NCBI GenBank assembly: GCA_963675515.1 | Contig: OY776328.1 | Span: 1,830,001 to 1,862,000 of the forward strand | Source of the DNA: Coprobacillaceae bacterium | GTDB taxonomy: Bacteria; Bacillota_I; Bacilli_A; Erysipelotrichales; Coprobacillaceae | DNA length: 32,000 nucleotides | Direction: 5' to 3' | Shown here: positions 6,755 to 17,039 of the stretch, one piece after another | How positions within the stretch are numbered: position 1 is the stretch's first letter | How the letters are laid out: the number at the start of each line of letters is the position of its first letter | Made by a program: the position numbers and the translations under genes | Notes under the pieces: model-generated | The model's input: only the letters and a program-made list of their open reading frames with translations | Database searches by the model: none | What the model was told of the DNA's origin: nothing

Positions 6755-6800
6755 AAAAAAGCTCTTGTTCATATCAACCGATATGAGCGAGAGCTTTTTT
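6755..6800. terminator. Bidirectional intrinsic terminator between convergent ilvE and citrate synthase
   Basis: Long hairpin aaaaaagctct...ttcatatc-aacc-gatatga...agagctttttt, flanked by an A-run and a T-run. Confidence 0.75.
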
Positions 6801-6810
6801 GATCATATTG

Positions 6811-8145
6811 TTATCGTTTTTCCAAAGGAAGATAGACTTCGTTGGATTCGCCGACGAATTTGGCAGCCGGTCTGATGATTTTATTGGTTGAAACCTTGTT
6901 TTCGACATTATGGGCCAGCCAGCCGACAGTTCTGCCGATTACAAACAATGGTGTATAAAGTTCTTCAGGAATGTCTAGCATCTGATAAACAAATCCCGAG
7001 TAGAAATCGACATTGGCGCAAAGATTCAAACCCTTTCGTTCCTTGATGATTTTGATTGCCATCTTTTCAAACCGCTCATAGAAATCAAACTTGGCCTGCT
7101 GGTTCTTTTCAATGGCAAGCTCGTAACAGTTCTTCTTTAAAATCTTGCAGCGAGGATCACTCAATGTGTAAACGGCATGGCCGATACCATAGATAAGGCC
7201 GCTGTTGTCATTGAATTCCTTCGCCAGGATGTCATTGATCAGCTTTTCAAGTTGTTCATCATCGGGTTCAAGTCCCAGTCTTTCAATTGCCAGATTCATC
7301 TGTTTGATGACGGAATGGTTGGCGCCTCCGTGACGCGGTCCTTTCAGTGAACCGATTGCCCCTGAAAAAGCGGAGTAAATGTCGGTTCCGGTTGACGAGA
7401 TAACGACATTTGTGAAAGTAGAGTTGTTCCCCCCGCCGTGATCGGCATGGACGACTAGACAACTATCCAAAATCTGCGCCTCTTTTTGGCTGTAAACCCC
7501 ATCATCACGCAAAAGAAGCAGAATATTCTGGGCAATTGACAGATTAGGGTCGATATGATGGATGACAAGCGATTTCTTGTCAATTTTGTATGATTTGGTC
7601 CGGTATGCGTAGGCTGCCAGGTATGGTATTTTGGCAATCAGATCCAGACCCTTGTCTATTGTCGCTTCAACCGAAATATCTTCAGGAGTCTTGTCAAAAT
7701 TATAAAGCATCAAAACTTCCTGTTGAAGCTTGTTCATTATATTGAATGATTCCGTATTTATGATATTGCTTTCCAGGAAATTGTTTGGCAAGTCATAACG
7801 TGATGACATCTCTTTTTTGAAAACCTCAAGTTCTTCCCGGTTTGGCAGATAACCGAAGATGATCAAAAAACAGACTTCTTCAAAAAGATGAGTTCGGCCT
7901 TCAGCGCCGTTTATCAGGTCTTCGACCGAATATCCGCGATAAAACAGTTTACCCTCGACATCAACTTTCTTGTCCCCTACTTTTTCATAGCCGACAACAT
8001 CGGCTATTTTTGTCAATCGGACAAGGACACCTGTTCCATCCTCGTTTCGCAATCCTTTTTTAACATCGTAAATATTATAAAATTCATCGTCGATTTTATT
8101 AATATCAATACTTTTTTCATAAAATTTTTGAATATTACTATCCAT
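6811..8145 (-). CDS. Citrate synthase
   Basis: 444 aa counted from ATG 8145 (AGGAGG RBS); the track's longer start at 8220 lacks an RBS. VVHADHGGGNNSTF and GPRHGGAN are citrate synthase signatures. Confidence 0.9.
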   Translation of the reverse strand: MDSNIQKFYEKSIDINKIDDEFYNIYDVKKGLRNEDGTGVLVRLTKIADVVGYEKVGDKKVDVEGKLFYRGYSVEDLINGAEGRTHLFEEVCFLIIFGYLPNREELEVFKKEMSSRYDLPNNFLESNIINTESFNIMNKLQQEVLMLYNFDKTPEDISVEATIDKGLDLIAKIPYLAAYAYRTKSYKIDKKSLVIHHIDPNLSIAQNILLLLRDDGVYSQKEAQILDSCLVVHADHGGGNNSTFTNVVISSTGTDIYSAFSGAIGSLKGPRHGGANHSVIKQMNLAIERLGLEPDDEQLEKLINDILAKEFNDNSGLIYGIGHAVYTLSDPRCKILKKNCYELAIEKNQQAKFDFYERFEKMAIKIIKERKGLNLCANVDFYSGFVYQMLDIPEELYTPLFVIGRTVGWLAHNVENKVSTNKIIRPAAKFVGESNEVYLPLEKR

Positions 8146-8178
8146 AAAGTACCTCCTACAACTTAATGTACACACTGT

Positions 8179-8207
8179 ATTATAGCAAATATCGCAAAGA
8201 TTGTATA
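8179..8207 (-). promoter_or_regulatory. Putative citrate synthase promoter
   Basis: On the minus strand there is TGcTATAAT (-10 at 8184-8179, TG at 8187-8186). A weak -35 (TATACA) lies inside the 12-bp palindrome at 8200-8211. Confidence 0.4.
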
Positions 8208-8270
8208 CAATATATTTCAACTTTATTGAAGAATTTTAGTGTGATATAATTTGGTAAAGAGGTGATAAGG

Positions 8271-10601
8271 ATGGCACTTAGCGAAATATCCGGCTTGAGT
8301 TCAGACGAAATCAAAGGCCGAGTGGCCTTAGGTAAAGTCAACAATTTCCACGCATCCAACAGCCGTAGCTACAAAGATATTTTTTTCTACAACATTATCA
8401 CTTTTTTCAATTTTCTCAACCTTTTTTTGCTTGTTCTGGTATTGTCTACCAGGTCCTTTAGCAACGCATTGTTTGGAACGACCTTTGTCATCAACACCAC
8501 AATAGGAATCATTCAGCAAATCAGGGCAAAAAGAATTCTCGACCGGTTATCCAGCACCAAACCTGCAATAACCACGGTTGTCAGGGATGGCCAGGTTCAA
8601 AAAATACTTGATAATCAAATTGTACTCAATGACGTTGTCGTTTATGGAGCCAATGACCATATCGGTGTCGATTGCCATATTCTGGAAGGAAGCGGCGAAA
8701 TCAACGAGTCACTGATCACCGGAGAAGCCAACGGAATATTCAAAACAATTGGTGATTATTTGCTCTCGGGATCGATAGTGATCAATGGCAAAATTTATTG
8801 CGAAGTTGACCACGTTGGCCCCGACAATTATATTGAAAAAATCATCAAGGAGGCCAAACAATTCCGCCTTCATACCTCGAAGCTATATCGCTATTTGAAC
8901 AAAATTTTAAAAGTGGTATCTATTATTATCATCCCATTGGGGTTCATCTTGTTCTTGCAATCGTTCTATGTTTTGAAATTGGGTCTCAATGCGAGCATTA
9001 TCGCCATGACGGCGAGCCAGATAGGCATGATCCCTCAGGGACTTGTACTGCTCACTTCAATCTCATTGACAATCGGAACTATAATTTTGGCAAACAAGAA
9101 CATCCTCGTTCAGGAATTGTACTCGATTGAGACGTTGGCTCGTGTCGACACGCTATGCATCGACAAGACCGGAACATTGACGTTAGGCAAGATCCGTGTC
9201 GATGACATCATCAATCTGACCGACCTTGACACAAAAGAGGTGGTCGGCAATATGCTTAGTCACCTGGAAGTTGTGAATGAGACAGGCCGAGCACTAAAAG
9301 ATCATTTTCCAATTCATACAAATTACAAATGCGAACTGGTGTCCCAGTTCAACTCCGTGACTAAATATTCCCTTGTTACTTTTAAGGGTATCGGGACCTA
9401 TTACCTTGGTGCTCCAACATCAATATTCGATCAGCTTGACCCCGATGAGCTGTTGCTTATAAGCAACTATACGACCGAAGGATACAGGGTGCTAGGATTA
9501 GGCTACTCGCCACTGACATACCGGCAAGAAAAACACCAGCACATCAAGCTGGTGGCGTTGATCATCCTTTCCGATATTCTCCGCCCCAATGTCAATGAGC
9601 TGTTTGATTTTTTTGCAGAAAACAAAGTTGAAATCAAGGTCATCTCCGGTGACGATTTCAATACCGTATGCAATATTGCTTTGAAATGCGGTTTGACCAA
9701 TATCAAAGGACTGAATTGTTCCAATCTTGAAAAACCGGAACTTGAAAAACAGGCGCTGGAGTACAATGTCTTCGGTAGGGCCACACCCGAACAAAAAAGG
9801 ATTCTTGTAAAGTACTTCAAGCAGCAAAAAAGGACCGTTGCAATGACAGGAGACGGCATAAACGATCTGCTGGCGCTAAAAGACGCCGACTGTTCGATCG
9901 CTTTAGGATCCGGATCACAGGCAACCAAAAATATTGCCAACATCATTCTCCTTGACGACGACTTCAGTTCTCTTAAAGATGCATTGCAACAAGGGCGTCG
10001 TGTCATCAACAACATTTCCAATTCAGCTATTATTTACCTGATCAAGACCTTCTTTTCAATCATTTTGACATTATGTGCCATACTTTTTTCAATTCAATAC
10101 CCTTTCCAACCGGTGCAACTAAGTCTGATTTCGGGTGTTGCCGTCGGATTGCCGACCTTCTTTTTGACATATGAGCCCAATTACAACCGAATCAACGATG
10201 ATTTTTTCTTCAAAATATTTCTTCACTCCTTGCCTGTCGCTATTTCAATATGCATAAATGCGGTTTTTATTGTTCTGATTGGCCGCCACCTGGATTTGGA
10301 TACCTTCCAGATCGCCATGATTTGCGTCGCCAACAACGGTGCCAACTATTTCTACACCCTCTTTAAAATCTATCAGCCACTGAATAGATTCCGCATTTTG
10401 ATATTGGTTTCAAGTTTCAGCATTTTCATTGTTTCACTGTTCCTATTGAAAAGCATCATCAAAGTCGCTATGATTGACTTGGCAGGATGGTCGGTTTTTG
10501 GAGCATCTTTGATCGTAAGTTTGATAATTATCAAACTCAGCAAGTATGCCATTTTGTCCATCTACAAACTGTATTATACAAGGAGAAAACAATGGAAATA
10601 G
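8271..10601 (+). CDS. Cation-translocating P-type ATPase (P2-like, HAD-IC family)
   Basis: It has the phosphorylation motif CIDKTGTLT, the hinge TGDGINDLLALKDAD and an actuator LITGEA motif, with about 10 TM. ATG 8271 is preferred over the track's GTG 8262. Confidence 0.85.
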   Translation: MALSEISGLSSDEIKGRVALGKVNNFHASNSRSYKDIFFYNIITFFNFLNLFLLVLVLSTRSFSNALFGTTFVINTTIGIIQQIRAKRILDRLSSTKPAITTVVRDGQVQKILDNQIVLNDVVVYGANDHIGVDCHILEGSGEINESLITGEANGIFKTIGDYLLSGSIVINGKIYCEVDHVGPDNYIEKIIKEAKQFRLHTSKLYRYLNKILKVVSIIIIPLGFILFLQSFYVLKLGLNASIIAMTASQIGMIPQGLVLLTSISLTIGTIILANKNILVQELYSIETLARVDTLCIDKTGTLTLGKIRVDDIINLTDLDTKEVVGNMLSHLEVVNETGRALKDHFPIHTNYKCELVSQFNSVTKYSLVTFKGIGTYYLGAPTSIFDQLDPDELLLISNYTTEGYRVLGLGYSPLTYRQEKHQHIKLVALIILSDILRPNVNELFDFFAENKVEIKVISGDDFNTVCNIALKCGLTNIKGLNCSNLEKPELEKQALEYNVFGRATPEQKRILVKYFKQQKRTVAMTGDGINDLLALKDADCSIALGSGSQATKNIANIILLDDDFSSLKDALQQGRRVINNISNSAIIYLIKTFFSIILTLCAILFSIQYPFQPVQLSLISGVAVGLPTFFLTYEPNYNRINDDFFFKIFLHSLPVAISICINAVFIVLIGRHLDLDTFQIAMICVANNGANYFYTLFKIYQPLNRFRILILVSSFSIFIVSLFLLKSIIKVAMIDLAGWSVFGASLIVSLIIIKLSKYAILSIYKLYYTRRKQWK

Positions 10602-12917: not shown

Positions 12918-12993
12918 GGGGGTTTAGCTCAGTTGGGAGAGCATCTGCCTTACAAGCAGAGGGTCGGCGGTTCGAGCCCGTCAACCCCCACCA
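12918..12993 (+). tRNA. tRNA-Val (anticodon TAC)
   Basis: Cloverleaf read by hand: acceptor GGGGGTT/AACCCCC, anticodon arm tctgc-cttacaa-gcaga, GTTCGAG T-loop, encoded CCA. Confidence 0.92.
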
Positions 12994-13015
12994 TTTATTA
13001 TAAGCAATCAAAAAT

Positions 13016-13091
<76 letters not shown>

Positions 13092-13094
13092 TAT

Positions 13095-13178
13095 GGAGGA
13101 GTAGCGAAGTGGCCAAACGCGGCTGACTGTAACTCAGTTCCTTTCGGTTCGGTGGTTCGAATCCGCCCTCCTCCACCA
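13095..13178 (+). tRNA. tRNA-Tyr (anticodon GTA)
   Basis: Acceptor GGAGGAG/CTCCTCC, anticodon loop ctgtaac, long variable arm as expected for bacterial Tyr, encoded CCA. Confidence 0.9.
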
Positions 13179-13183
13179 TCTAT

Positions 13184-13259
13184 TGGGGTATAGCCAAGCG
13201 GTAAGGCAACAGACTTTGACTCTGTCATCTCCCTGGTTCGAATCCAGGTACCCCAGCCA
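13184..13259 (+). tRNA. tRNA-Gln (anticodon TTG)
   Basis: Acceptor TGGGGTA/TACCCCA, anticodon arm acaga-ctttgac-tctgt, encoded CCA. Confidence 0.9.
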
Positions 13260-13267
13260 ACTTTTTT

Positions 13268-13343
13268 GACCCGCTAGCTCAGTCGGTAGAGCATCTGACT
13301 TTTAATCAGAGGGTCAGGCGTTCGAGTCGCCTGCGGGTCACCA
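13268..13343 (+). tRNA. tRNA-Lys (anticodon TTT)
   Basis: Acceptor GACCCGC/GCGGGTC, anticodon arm tctga-cttttaa-tcaga, encoded CCA. Confidence 0.92.
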
Positions 13344-13354
13344 TTTTAAATATT

Positions 13355-13437
13355 GCGGGTGTGGCGAAATTGGCAGACGCACCAGACTTAGGATCTGGCG
13401 GGTAACCGTGGGGGTTCGAGTCCCTTCACCCGCACCA
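13355..13437 (+). tRNA. tRNA-Leu (anticodon TAG)
   Basis: Acceptor GCGGGTG/CACCCGC, anticodon arm ccaga-cttagga-tctgg, long variable arm, encoded CCA. Confidence 0.9.
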
Positions 13438-13448
13438 TACTAACAACA

Positions 13449-13470
13449 ACGGCTATTATGGCCGTTTTTT
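13449..13470 (+). terminator. Short intrinsic terminator closing the tRNA array
   Basis: Stem acggc / gccgt with loop tattatg, then T6. Confidence 0.5.
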
Positions 13471-13541
13471 GCTTTCAATTTATTTACCCGATATCCAAAT
13501 TGTTCGAACTTTTTATAAATATTAGGCCTGTCATAACATTG

Positions 13542-13609
13542 TATATTGTTCAAGTTTGAAACAATATATAATTGGTTAAGGACACAATTTCAATTATAAT
13601 TGTGTCCTT
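13542..13609. other. Two adjacent perfect hairpins at the tRNA-proximal edge of the AT-rich island
   Basis: Hairpin 1 has the stem tatattgtt (13542-13550) / aacaatata (13560-13568). Hairpin 2 has the 12-bp stem aaggacacaatt (13578-13589) / aattgtgtcctt (13598-13609). Neither has a clean U-tract on either strand. Confidence 0.5.
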
Positions 13610-13620
13610 CATAGAAATAT

Positions 13621-13905
13621 TTAATTTAGTTTTCTATCCCCCCAAAGCGTAATAGAATTCAAAGTCAAGAAAACGAGCATAGTTAACAAAAACACGAGAT
13701 AATATGATCTATTTTCATTAGTGGATGTTATCATACTGGTATCAATGTTCATAATATCAACTATTAAATAAATCATTATTAGAAGAATTCCAGAGAAAAC
13801 GACAATTCTAGCGTGCAATAATTTTGCTATCTTCCCGAAAATTCTAAAAACATCAAAAATTATCACCAAAACCAAAATGCATTCAACAAGATAAAATATT
13901 CCCAT
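13621..13905 (-). CDS. Small 3-TM membrane protein, immunity-like, paralog of 15328-15609
   Basis: 94-aa ORF whose ATG lies 2 nt after the stop of the upstream ORF, so the two are translationally coupled. It has three hydrophobic helices and a conserved ITSTNE.R.YY loop shared with the 93-aa ORF. Confidence 0.6.
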   Translation of the reverse strand: MGIFYLVECILVLVIIFDVFRIFGKIAKLLHARIVVFSGILLIMIYLIVDIMNIDTSMITSTNENRSYYLVFLLTMLVFLTLNSITLWGDRKLN

Positions 13906-13907
13906 AG

Positions 13908-14528
13908 TTATTTACTCACATAAGTGCCCTTTCCGTAATAAGTATTAGGCTCTTTAGCAGTCGGATAATTTGTCCAAACATCAGTCAAGCTGTGACTATA
14001 CCATTGGCCTTGATATGAGGTGTAAAACTGTGAATGTATTATCCCCTTCCCAGCATTACGAGCATCAATGTATGGCTTCTGAGACATATATGTGTCAAAT
14101 TCAGATAATAATATTGCTGCAGAAAAATATGTTGTACCCGCCCCAACCCATGCAGCTAGCGCCGTTGCAACTGCTGTCGAAAATCCTTTTTTTACCAAAT
14201 AGCTAATTGCATATTCTAACGATTTACCTGCTATGACTGGTATAGTGCCCTTAAATTCATTTATGAAGGACCCCGAACTGAACCCAGCACAAGTATATAT
14301 AACATCAACTTTAGAAATATATTCTATTTTTCTCATCCAAATGTTACCATTATAAATTACACTAGGTGCATCACTTTTATAATTCCAATATGCACCATTT
14401 GTTTGAGAATAGTGCGATGTACCATTCAATACTCCGTCAAAAATTGAACTCAGGGAATAAATACTTTCCGAATTATTCAATGAATATAACACCTGTTCCG
14501 CTTTTTCCTCAATATACTCTTTAAACAT
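13908..14528 (-). CDS. Hypothetical protein, distal reading frame of a frameshift-split ~261-aa gene (candidate effector/toxin)
   Basis: The 206-aa ORF from the track has no RBS before its ATG, and its frame stays open upstream to the A7 tract at 14626-14632. It has one Gly/Ala-rich hydrophobic helix (STAVATALAAWVGAGTTYFSAAILL) and an aromatic/Gln-rich tail. No family is recognised. Confidence 0.55.
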   Translation of the reverse strand: MFKEYIEEKAEQVLYSLNNSESIYSLSSIFDGVLNGTSHYSQTNGAYWNYKSDAPSVIYNGNIWMRKIEYISKVDVIYTCAGFSSGSFINEFKGTIPVIAGKSLEYAISYLVKKGFSTAVATALAAWVGAGTTYFSAAILLSEFDTYMSQKPYIDARNAGKGIIHSQFYTSYQGQWYSHSLTDVWTNYPTAKEPNTYYGKGTYVSK

Positions 14529-14545
14529 TGGAGCTTTATCATAAT

Positions 14546-14692
14546 CTAATATGTATGGATTTTCAGAAGTCCCATCACCTGATACAATTGAAGCGTCAAT
14601 TTCATCTTCATATATTGTATCAATATTTTTTTAACATCACCTTTCGCATAAATATCGTATTTGTTAACTAAACTAACACATTGACTGTTCAT
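14546..14692 (-). other. Proximal reading frame (48 codons) of the same split gene; carries the real start signal
   Basis: ATG 14692 is preceded by AGGTGG with a 6-nt spacer. It reads MNSQCVSLVNKYDIYAKGDVKK, then enters the A7 tract. In this frame it terminates at 14546; one extra A would fuse it to the 13908-14528 frame. Confidence 0.5.
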
Positions 14693-14831
14693 TTAATACC
14701 ACCTGATCTTGTTCAATCCGTTCAATGATTATCCATTCAAAGGACATCGTATTTTTAATTTCTGTTTTAACAACTGTCTGTCTTGCTTTTTTATTGCTTT
14801 CTAATTCTACAAGATGCCTGAAAAACAACAA

Positions 14832-15041
14832 TCAAAAGAATGATATTCTTCTCGAAAAAACCAACAATATCGGTAGAACAATAGTTATATATATCAAAAT
14901 AGAAAATAACTCAAGCACAGTGTTATCATGAATAAAAAAATTATCCACAATAAAGATGAATTCACTGATAACCAAAAAATATATTCGACTTGCAAATAGT
15001 ATGAATGCCCCCTTAATTAGAACCTCTGACCATTTCGCCAT
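14832..15041 (-). CDS. Small 2-TM membrane protein, first gene of the island cassette
   Basis: 69-aa ORF with AAGGAG at 15058-15053 (11-nt spacer). It sits downstream of a near-consensus promoter and has two hydrophobic helices. It could instead be a chance ORF in AT-rich DNA. Confidence 0.4.
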   Translation of the reverse strand: MAKWSEVLIKGAFILFASRIYFLVISEFIFIVDNFFIHDNTVLELFSILIYITIVLPILLVFSRRISFF

Positions 15042-15072
15042 CGTGTATCTATCTCCTTATCCCAACAGCTTA

Positions 15073-15101
15073 ATACTATCACAGGAAATTGATGGAGTCA
15101 A
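15073..15101 (-). promoter_or_regulatory. Near-consensus sigma-70 promoter of the island cassette
   Basis: The minus strand reads TTGACT (15101-15096), the 17-nt spacer ccatcaatttcctgtga, then TAGTAT (15078-15073) with an upstream TG (extended -10). Confidence 0.5.
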
Positions 15102-15327
15102 TATCCGTCATAATGAGCAATAAAAACAATTGTGTGTTTTTTGTATTCTGCGGTACGATGTTTACAACAAAAATATTTTATTAATCGATTCATTACAAAT
15201 CAAACACATAGAAAACATAATTCTCTAGCAGAAATTGCGTAAATCAATATTCATTCGCAATAGGCCCACAATAAATTATCACATGCGTGTAAATGCTAAG
15301 GGGCTAAGATCCTATAAATTATACTCA

Positions 15328-15609
15328 CTATCTATCCTTGTAAAGCGTAACACCACTTATCATAAGGAATGAAGATAAAGTTAAAACAAATAGATAATAG
15401 TAATTTCTATATTCATTAGTTGAAGTTATCAAGCTAAAGCTGGTACCGATGTCCATAGTCTCAATTGCAATATAGATTAAAATCAGAAAAAGACATCCAA
15501 AAAAACTAATAGCAGAGTGCAATTTCTTGGATATTTTTTTTGCAAGCCGCAAGATAGCAAAAATTATTAGTATAGTTAAATAGAATTCCATGAAAAAATA
15601 TAGTCTCAT
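15328..15609 (-). CDS. Small 3-TM membrane protein, immunity-like, paralog of 13621-13905 (orphan copy)
   Basis: 93-aa ORF with an AGAGG RBS 8 nt upstream. By hand alignment about 40 of about 92 positions are identical to the 94-aa ORF. Confidence 0.6.
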   Translation of the reverse strand: MRLYFFMEFYLTILIIFAILRLAKKISKKLHSAISFFGCLFLILIYIAIETMDIGTSFSLITSTNEYRNYYYLFVLTLSSFLMISGVTLYKDR

Positions 15610-15962
15610 TTTTAATACCTCTCACACATCAAACACAATTTACATTTTTCCTTTTAACACAAAGGGTTACCACCAAATAATTTGAAGAACAAGTATGACT
15701 AGATGTGTAAAATTTCAAATATTTATAACAATCGTGTCCAAATAATGCGTCTAGCTACAACTATCTTCGCAAGCCAAAATACGCTTCCTGTGGTTTATAG
15801 ACATTCAAGTATAGTATTAAAAATTATGTTCTATTACCATTCTACAAATTTGGCTATTACCCCAATATTTATTTCAGACCCATTATTATCTTTGACAATT
15901 ATTTTTACAGGATAAGATGTTAAAGTTAATACCTAGAATCCCGCGTAAATTTATAACAACAC

Positions 15963-16440
15963 CTAAGGTAGCGGGATGTTGAATGATTCATAGATGATTC
16001 GCCGTTCCTTTGTTACTGGAGCAATGATGCTTTGGCTGTTGATATCTTGGATACGCAACTTTGCAAGGATTTGGAGAAGCTCTTTCATCGTGTGTTTTTT
16101 GTACAAGCCCATTTCATTCATCACTTTGTTGATTTCTGACATGATCACTGATGCAATGAATCCGACAAATAGTTTCCCCTGCATCGCATTATCGCTGCGA
16201 ACTCGTAACCTACCAAGGTCGATGCGGTTTTAAGATTTTATTCAATAACGTCTGTCCTGATGTTGACAGTGTATCCATTGTCCTTCTTTTCGAATTTGCG
16301 GATAATCAGATACTTTCCACATTCCGCGTCATGTAGCCATTTTTCAGGATTTTCAGTTGCCTTTTGCCGGAGCATGGCTATTGAAGAATAAAGGTCTTCA
16401 CGGATTCCCACAGCCTTTTTAGCGCTGTAGTTATAACCTT
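15963..16440 (-). pseudogene. Decayed DDE transposase remnant (IS4/IS1634-like C-terminal part)
   Basis: The hand-translated minus strand gives GYNYSAKKAVGIREDLYSSIAMLRQKATENPEKWLHDAECGKYLIIRKFEKKDNGYTVNIRTDVIE, then an in-frame TAA. The expected NRIDLGRLRVRSDNA is readable only in a shifted frame. The original frame then resumes with MQGKLFVGFIASVIMSEINKVM...PLP. There is no intact N-terminal or catalytic part and I saw no terminal inverted repeats. The remnant may extend further toward about 16650. Confidence 0.65.
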
Positions 16441-17011
16441 ATGCGTGTAGGAGTATCAGACTACTTGTTTCAGGCTAACATGACAGCCATCATTCCAAGT
16501 ATTGAATATTCAGTTGTGATTTTCCAATTGGAAAATCCTCCCATTTCATGCCTAGGCACTTATAGGGAAACGTTTCGCACCATGACTAAAGTCACGAGTG
16601 TTCTCGACCAGTTAATAAACTGAATTGCTTTCTAGTTACCCTAATCTCGATTCGTCAATATTTCCAAGGTCAATACGAAAATCATAATTACCATAGTTAA
16701 GATTAAGTCATCGCTAAATCCGCCAACATACAAAGATATACATTTTTATCATGGTATCCTGTAGTCAATTCGTTTTTATCAAATTTGTAGATGTAAATTG
16801 AAGCACGTATACTTGAAGAATAACCCGCATAATCAGCACCATTGTCTCGCATCAGAAAACACATGCAAATGTTTGATAAAGACAAAATCGCAATTATTGC
16901 CGGTTTTATCATCTTCTTCAACAAGTCCAACATCCAAAAATGAAAATGTTAGTTTAAAAACTTACCGTATGCTTGAACCATGAAAGAAGAAACTGTTGCT
17001 CTCAACCGCCT

Positions 17012-17039
17012 ACTAAAAAAGGACGAATCAATCCGTCCT
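17012..17039 (-). terminator. Intrinsic terminator of the suf-flippase transcription unit
   Basis: Stem aggacg (17020-17025) / cgtcct (17034-17039) overlapping the TAG stop, followed on the minus strand by T6 (17019-17014). Confidence 0.6.

Follow-up and report, generated by a model that had tools for sequence, protein, structure and literature searches.

A decayed remnant of a mobile two-gene module, possibly of a secreted toxin and its membrane immunity protein, beside a tRNA cluster in a Coprobacillaceae genome

The window analysed here is a stretch of 32,000 nucleotides from a Coprobacillaceae bacterium (GenBank assembly GCA_963675515.1, contig OY776328.1, positions 1,830,001 to 1,862,000 of the forward strand). 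Beside a tRNA cluster it holds an islet of 3.6 kb, left over from the decay of a mobile two-gene module: a gene for a large protein, broken here, and a gene for a small protein with three predicted transmembrane (TM) helices, intact here and accompanied by a second, diverged copy. Five open reading frames (ORFs) on the minus strand between positions 13621 and 15609 are relevant, encoding 69, 48, 206, 94 and 93 amino acids (Table 1). A preliminary description of this DNA had reported the first four of these as parts of a membrane cassette, with a diverged copy of its last protein nearby; all four lie where it had placed them, and the diverged copy is the 93-residue ORF.

The 48- and 206-residue ORFs are two frames of one gene. 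As that description had proposed, a single frameshift splits an ORF of about 261 codons: the two pieces meet at a run of seven A residues, and an A inserted in this run gives a continuous protein of 261 amino acids. The run has lost one nucleotide relative to the intact homologue L019, which has AATAGAAAT. The repaired protein is 79% identical to the intact 274-residue protein P0001 (E-values of 1e-133 to 9.5e-133); tblastn searches with proteins of the large family match the window in two frames, and the closest intact genes, L019 and L020, encode proteins with 79% and 78% identity to the repaired one. In DNA alignments to these two genes, homology begins only at about position 14681, and the window has unrelated sequence where the promoter, ribosome-binding site, ATG and some 17 signal-peptide codons should be. 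Identity to L019 is 0.12-0.40 across the junction as opposed to 0.85-1.00 just downstream, and when the proteins are aligned, 13 residues that form the core of the signal peptide are missing from the window copy. The AGGTGG motif and the ATG at 14692, formerly read as the start of the gene, do exist, but the ATG is fortuitous, because the homology to intact genes reaches only to about 14681 and the native 5' end has been replaced. The absence of a signal peptide, likewise put forward as a property of the large protein, is an artefact of the truncation, since its intact homologues have one.

Judged by these alignments, the large gene of the window is a pseudogene of a secreted-protein family, inactivated twice over, by 5' truncation and by frameshift. 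Taken alone, the frameshift might reflect a sequencing error in a homopolymer, but the 5' truncation is not explicable in that way. Programmed -1 frameshifting at the A run was considered and rejected, since the intact homologues are unshifted and the 5' truncation already abolishes export. The ORF annotated publicly as a hypothetical protein of 206 residues is a piece of this pseudogene, which leaves the two small membrane-protein genes as the only candidates for function in the window.

Table 1. Positions of the module remnants and neighbouring features within the window
Feature	Position	Strand	Remarks
94-aa small gene	13621-13905	-	Intact; public gene call P0141; candidate immunity or partner protein
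Large-gene pseudogene	13908-14681	-	5'-truncated and frameshifted
206-aa ORF	13908-14528	-	Second frame of the large gene
48-aa ORF	14546-14692	-	First frame of the large gene
A7 run, site of 1-nt deletion	14626-14632	-	From alignment to intact homologue L019
Junction with fortuitous AGGTGG-N7-ATG (ATG 14692)	14682-14706	-	Not homologous to 5' ends of intact genes
69-aa ORF	14832-15041	-	Hydrophobic; unsupported as a gene; outside the conserved module
Promoter-like TTGACT-17-(TG)TAGTAT	15073-15101	-	Chance-level match
93-aa small gene	15328-15609	-	Intact orphan paralogue, three TM helices; public gene call P0142
Perfect 12-bp hairpin	13578-13609	-	12 nt past the stop of the 94-aa gene; no U-tract
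IS1634-family transposase, C-terminal fragment	15963-16184	-	NF033559, E 5.4e-6, profile positions 410-482 of 483
Six tRNA genes (Val-TAC, Thr-TGT, Tyr-GTA, Gln-TTG, Lys-TTT, Leu-TAG)	12918-13437	+	Islet boundary

A search of 5.8 billion clustered proteins with the repaired large protein returned 13 relatives of 260-275 residues, 0 of them annotated, and an exhaustive profile search returned 104 representative clusters at 50% identity, nearly all of 230-290 residues, from gut Erysipelotrichaceae and Lachnospiraceae. The family is recognisable by the motifs SGDGTxxNPY, GGYW, NGN, TSYQGxWY and TAxEPxxYGxG. All intact relatives begin with a classical Sec signal peptide, the exception being a clade (P0028, P0029 and P0033) to which we return below. 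Ratios of nonsynonymous to synonymous substitution rates (dN/dS) are 0.04-0.43 family-wide, by which measure the family is under purifying selection. Conservation falls on Gly, Trp, Tyr and Pro, and no catalytic-type residue is invariant; the protein is accordingly more likely to be a binding or membrane-active one than an enzyme.

Scans of the window proteins and of 56 family members against Pfam, NCBIfam, PHROG and PADLOC gave no meaningful match, and a sequence profile search of the Protein Data Bank (PDB) with the large protein gave nothing at E<=1. Searching 72,556 plasmids with P0001 by tblastn produced no match, the presence among them of the plasmids that carry dysgalacticin and streptococcin A-M57 being unconfirmed; there are no relatives in 50,697 phage genomes (by tblastn) or in IMG/VR, and no description of the family was found in the literature searched. 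The large-protein family is thus undescribed in the libraries and literature examined. That the large ORF could not be placed in a known family, as stated earlier, is borne out for Pfam, NCBIfam, PHROG, PADLOC and PDB sequences, and the ORF matched no housekeeping or phage structural family.

The small proteins, of 87-97 residues, form a family of their own with three predicted TM helices. In the window the ATG of the 94-residue protein lies 2 nt beyond the stop of the large gene, as first described, and an AlphaFold2 model (predicted local distance difference test score, pLDDT, 76.5) bears out the three TM helices ascribed to it, with long helices at residues 2-22, 28-51 and 63-93; its topology is probably N-out/C-in. 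Across the family alignment there is an invariant Glu in the first TM helix (E8), a conserved Lys past that helix, an Asn in the outer loop and a basic C-terminus. The membrane-embedded Glu hints at a specific interaction or a proton-linked function. Foldseek found no match to the small-protein model in the PDB.

The two small proteins of the window are 43-44% identical (E 1.5e-22), and both genes are intact and encode the three predicted TM helices, the Glu of the first helix and the basic C-terminus of the family. The gene for the 93-residue protein is preceded by GAGAGG, a motif resembling a ribosome-binding site; tblastn with eight large-family proteins detected no significant remnant of a large gene near it. 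A third copy, P0122, whose gene shares a contig of 2,881,239 bp with those of the window, is 94% identical to the 94-residue protein, with 6 substitutions.

Elsewhere the small gene accompanies the large one. It is found directly downstream of the large gene in L007, L012-L015, L018, L021-L023, L025, L026, L028, L029 and L034-L039, starting no more than about 30 nt from the large-gene stop or overlapping the large gene. The conserved unit is two genes, one for a large secreted protein and one for a small membrane protein, and not the cassette of three genes first reported, whose promoter and 69-residue ORF lie outside it. Two expectations set out in the preliminary description, that large and small genes should co-occur among homologues and that extra copies of the small gene should accumulate, are both borne out: pairing is seen in more than 15 independent loci, small genes with no large gene occur in L030-L033 and as the 93-residue copy of the window, and small genes stand in tandem in L018 and L036-L039. 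In L018, L028, L029 and the window, the large gene is 5'-truncated or frameshifted, yet the small gene behind it is intact.

The contexts of the pairs are accessory or mobile, with a serine recombinase, UmuC/LexA-like genes and restriction-modification genes nearby; a gene of L012 (7164-7553) has no Pfam match, and from its translation we take it to be TraG/VirD4-like. Carriage of the module on mobile elements is indicated. In the window the islet spans about 13440 to 17037 and is low in G+C (31-33%, versus about 40-45% in the flanks), with housekeeping genes on either side: pgi on one, a flippase gene and the Suf operon on the other. A public source labels the protein cluster of pgi as Erysipelotrichaceae. 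It contains three ORFs of at least 93 codons where 0.29 would be expected by chance, an excess of about tenfold, and the fragment of an IS1634-family transposase marks it as decayed mobile DNA. A search around the islet for att-like direct repeats of the 3' end of the tRNA-Leu gene found none.

AlphaFold2, run on an alignment of 56 sequences, gave a model of the large protein with a pLDDT of 85.7 and a predicted template-modelling score of 0.76. In this model the signal peptide is followed by a unit of helix, beta-hairpin (carrying GDGTxxNPY) and helix, and then by a beta-sheet core assembled from residues 114-139 and 230-273, between which an insert of about 85 residues (141-226) folds as six short helices of 10-14 residues each. 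The insert includes a Gly/Ala/Ser-rich, moderately hydrophobic helical hairpin, and it is here, within the six helices, that the Gly/Ala-rich hydrophobic segment already noted in the window sequence is located. Confidence within the insert is lowest for the hairpin (pLDDT 63-66 at residues 200-220). Most family members have in the insert a 19-residue stretch with a Kyte-Doolittle value of 1.2-2.0; one clade is without such hydrophobicity. Foldseek searches of the PDB and BFVD with the large-protein model gave nothing below an E-value of 0.4.

The helical insert is the least conserved part of the protein, with a mean pairwise identity of 17% against 37-38% for the beta core. Aligned with L019, the window copy agrees at 92-100% of nucleotides over its N-terminal part, at 50-55% where the insert begins and at 82-90% at the 3' end; synonymous divergence (dS) is lowest in the N-terminal part (0.29), highest in the insert (1.52) and intermediate in the C-terminal part (0.69), with a dN/dS of 0.13-0.20 throughout. 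This mosaic points to recombinational exchange of insert alleles under purifying selection. An elevated dN/dS in the insert was also looked for but not seen: values there are 0.10-0.43, the pattern is that of a mosaic or an older allele, and no positive selection is detectable in this way.

One natural allele goes further and lacks the hairpin altogether. In L013 (5945-6568), compared with L022 (4001-4813), an in-frame deletion of 177 nt (59 codons) between GCTGGAAAAGG repeats excises exactly the hydrophobic hairpin. The repeats read GCTGGAAAAGG(C/T)TTAA and both encode AGKGL; outside the deletion the two alleles agree at 97%, and the small gene downstream has been kept intact. At least 13 sequences (P0009-P0011) carry the deleted allele.

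Small genes that stand alone or in tandem, large genes that have decayed more than once, deletion of the hairpin and a mosaic insert together make the pattern that a toxin/immunity system predicts. We infer from these gene-neighbourhood dynamics, together with the predicted structure, that the large protein is a bacteriocin-like toxin, secreted by Sec and aimed at membranes, and the small one an immunity protein of the membrane, the module having decayed in this genome with its small genes surviving; our confidence in this reading goes about halfway. The mature protein of about 27 kDa would be released by the Sec pathway, its hydrophobic hairpin kept buried in the helical insert for as long as the protein is soluble. 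The hairpin would then insert into the membrane of related competitor bacteria, as in class III non-lytic bacteriocins or pore-forming colicins, and the small three-helix protein would be the cognate immunity factor, neutralising the toxin in the membrane of its producer. In this genome the putative toxin gene is dead, leaving the two small genes of the window, for 94 and 93 residues, and the third chromosomal copy; the most plausible reason for keeping these is that, as orphan immunity genes, they protect against toxin-making neighbours. The toxin/immunity layout suggested at the outset is upheld in its pairing, its orphan copies and the lack of any housekeeping family, and falls in its three-gene make-up, its promoter and its 69-residue ORF. 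A bolder version, to which we lend tentative and rather less than even credence, is that these proteins are a new family of Sec-secreted, membrane-inserting antibacterials with a recombined helical cassette, whose three-helix immunity genes are hoarded by non-producers such as this genome.

Among known systems, dysgalacticin (with DysI) and streptococcin A-M57 offer one comparison: they are non-lytic class III (large, heat-labile) bacteriocins of Gram-positive bacteria with a Sec-type leader, carried on mobile DNA beside a membrane-associated immunity gene and proposed to act on the target membrane (PMC8308785). The family described here likewise comprises proteins of about 20-27 kDa with a Sec leader, mobile carriage, an adjacent gene for a membrane protein, the candidate immunity factor, and a proposed action on the target membrane. 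No match came up in the tblastn search of the plasmid collection or in Pfam or NCBIfam, and the taxa differ, being Erysipelotrichaceae and Lachnospiraceae here.

Pore-forming colicins of the E1, A and Ia types combine a hydrophobic helical hairpin within a helical domain of a soluble, secreted protein, an inner-membrane immunity protein of three or four TM helices encoded alongside, and a variable membrane-active region. The predicted hairpin in a helical domain, the adjacent small polytopic membrane protein and a variable, putatively membrane-active region as candidate determinant of specificity would be points of likeness. However, the present family has short helices (10-14 residues) set within a beta-sheet core, it is exported by Sec and not through a lysis protein, and there are no receptor or translocation domains. 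The 56 family members gave no Pfam match to the colicin pore domain (PF01024), and no colicin in the PDB was matched by sequence at E<=1 or by Foldseek at E<0.4.

With the polymorphic toxins (the cdiA-CT/cdiI genes of contact-dependent inhibition, Rhs, LXG) the module shares 5'-truncated fragments of the large gene followed by intact small genes, small genes both in tandem and as orphans, and a mosaic, recombination-like variable region. Unlike them, it shows by Pfam no LXG, Rhs, filamentous haemagglutinin, CdiA or other N-terminal trafficking domain for contact-dependent delivery; its variable part is an internal insert rather than a C-terminal toxin tip, and its proteins are small and Sec-secreted. 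In Bacillus subtilis, SdpC is a Sec-secreted precursor of about 200 residues with an internal hydrophobic segment, and its membrane immunity protein, SdpI, is encoded in the same locus. A Sec-secreted protein with an internal hydrophobic segment and a membrane protein encoded beside it are features that the present module shares; it has no sequence relationship to that system, a much smaller candidate immunity protein, no SdpR-type regulator and no sign of processing.

Several observations weigh against the toxin/immunity reading. No sequence or fold similarity to a known bacteriocin, colicin, immunity protein or pore-forming toxin was found in the databases searched, and the hairpin is barely hydrophobic enough to count as a TM segment. 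In L025 and L034 the large proteins share 84-96% identity, but the small proteins that follow them share only 39%, so that strict cognate pairing is not evident. The P0013 clade has no small gene downstream; a 113-residue membrane protein is encoded upstream of its large gene instead. The clade of P0028, P0029 and P0033 (L040, 2035-3081) has no small-family gene alongside, and a fused N-terminal membrane domain of four helices takes the place of the signal peptide; that domain resembles the 113-residue protein encoded upstream of P0013. The fused gene is a genuine ORF in a chromosomal, non-mobile setting, with DegV and Impact_N neighbours, and its insert is polar. This type looks like an anchored surface protein and not a diffusible toxin; an oddity is that the positive-inside rule would predict its family domain to be cytoplasmic. 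One further member, P0091 (305 residues), ends in choline-binding (cell-wall) repeats.

As to the junction between large and small genes, a small gene of the P0137 type stands in L036-L039 between the large gene and a 5'-truncated small gene of the L025 type. The arrangements in L025, L034 and L036-L039 indicate that small genes have been inserted or replaced there.

The most serious alternative, which we consider somewhat unlikely, is that the large protein is no toxin at all: it would be a secreted or cell-surface accessory protein, with a role in the envelope, in adhesion or in mobile-element exclusion, and the three-helix protein its membrane partner or anchor, the window copy being dead and without any part in antagonism. 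It accounts readily for the natural fusions to a polytopic membrane domain in a chromosomal context and for the member with choline-binding repeats. It is favoured also by the lack of conserved catalytic residues and by the N-terminal GDGTxxNPY helix-hairpin-helix unit, which matches ten repeats in P0103, a protein of 4905 residues with VWA and Listeria-Bacteroides repeats. In a mirror-tree comparison, small-gene divergence correlated about equally with all three regions of the large protein (Spearman 0.56-0.58); as a test of whether it tracks the insert this is uninformative, but the lack of region-specific co-divergence may be counted on this side. However, a surface protein does not predict orphan or tandem small genes, large genes that decay time and again beside small ones that remain intact, a deletion that takes out precisely the hairpin or a mosaic, hypervariable insert.

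A second alternative, improbable in our judgement, keeps the small protein as an immunity factor and makes the large one a pro-protein, from which the internal Gly/Ala-rich segment is cut out as a small membrane-active peptide bacteriocin. Precedents are the SDP peptide of B. subtilis, cut from SdpC with SdpI as immunity protein, and propionicin F. The Sec signal peptide, together with an internal hairpin of about 45 residues that resembles class II or circular bacteriocin sequences, would suit such a precursor, as would the behaviour of the hairpin as a discrete deletable unit and its having the lowest model confidence in the insert. The beta core and C-terminal strands that flank it are, however, the best conserved parts of the protein and under strong purifying selection, which is unexpected for a discarded pro-region and makes SdpC-like processing less likely than a full-length toxin; nor are there conserved processing sites, a dedicated protease beside the pair or Pfam matches to SdpC/SdpI-type families.

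The preliminary description had offered a holin-like lysis remnant or a membrane-acting abortive-infection module as alternatives; neither fares well with phage relatives, an enzymatic domain and a PADLOC match all lacking and with a large protein that is exported. A lysis cassette would pair a class I-type holin, the small protein, with a large protein that is Sec-exported and endolysin-like, and size, three TM helices and a charged C-terminus do give the small protein a holin-like appearance, to which the 93-residue paralogue adds a weak match to Phage_holin_9 (E 0.09, missing the threshold). We regard this as very improbable: neither the 50,697 phage genomes nor IMG/VR nor PHROG yielded a meaningful relative, the large protein shows neither a muralytic domain nor conserved catalytic residues, the gene order is opposite to that of the usual cassettes, and the surrounding contexts are not prophage lysis regions. 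An abortive-infection or other defence module is scarcely credible, its mobile carriage and the restriction-modification and HEPN genes near some loci notwithstanding, since a Sec-exported protein is unable to sense infection in the cytoplasm and neither the three window proteins nor their homologues match PADLOC.

For the window itself the practical message is modest. If the toxin/immunity reading is true, the large bacteriocins of Gram-positive bacteria that depend on Sec, of which few are known, would gain a new family and fold, and one that occurs in abundant, little-studied gut lineages, the Erysipelotrichaceae and Lachnospiraceae. It would also make a clean system for studying loss of a toxin with retention of immunity in the gut microbiome, because the hairpin-deleted variant, the truncated alleles and the orphan immunity genes are natural controls.

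Gene neighbourhoods at other loci supply additional observations. About 2 kb from the orphan small genes of L030-L033 lies a bacteriocin-type exporter of Peptidase_C39, ABC_membrane and ABC_tran domains (approximately 6766-9294), with small ORFs alongside, a setting that suggests a bacteriocin island. Just upstream of the pair in L007 (4636-5805) and L015 (3633-4766) there is a divergent operon encoding a PadR regulator, a DUF6120 protein and a secreted protein of 143-152 residues, and a PadR/DUF6120 pair also adjoins the orphan small gene in L030-L033; this operon could serve the module as a regulator or as an accessory unit. In the P0013 clade (L001-L006, 1-6000, and L017), the family gene adjoins a Tad/Flp-type pilus cluster in which only T2SSF (TadB/C) is matched by Pfam. 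Other proteins of that cluster we take, from reading their translations, to be Flp pilins, a prepilin peptidase-like protein and TadE-like proteins, and a secreted protein of 337 residues is presumably a cysteine peptidase of papain or C39 type, to go by its Cys...His motif. These loci continue with genes for HU, helix-turn-helix proteins, a DNA methylase and restriction functions, and look like a conjugative or integrative element.

In the window, upstream of the large-gene remnant, the 69-residue ORF and its AAGGAG motif are present as previously described, but their status as a gene is unsupported. No homologue of the ORF was found at E<=0.01 in the 5.8 billion proteins, it is missing from public gene calls, and about 1.7 ORFs of 69 or more codons are expected by chance in 3.6 kb of such AT-rich DNA. 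Its sole similarity, a weak one, is to a 66-residue ORF in L015 (2674-2856), a metagenome-assembled genome of Massilimicrobiota, at a distance of 2 kb from the pair. That it might be a diverged member of the small family or a conserved gene was rejected, as it is unrelated to the small family and without homologues. The sequence at 15101-15073, once called a near-consensus promoter, matches 9 of 12 positions, with the TG extension; the region holds 22 such sites against 19.6 +/- 4.5 in shuffled sequences, and the match cannot be distinguished from chance in an AT-rich region.

At the other edges of the islet, the hairpin beyond the 94-residue gene has a folding energy of -15.8 kcal/mol (z-score -4.4), and 0 of 200 shuffled sequences fold equally well; it may be a transcript-end or stabilising structure. 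The transposase fragment is a 73-residue ORF covering the last 70 or so residues of the IS1634-family model, and an adjacent ORF of 57 residues (16238-16411), without a database match of its own, resembles part of the same broken transposase gene. Just after the tRNA cluster there is a terminator-like hairpin (13448-13466), and the accessory islet starts directly beyond it.

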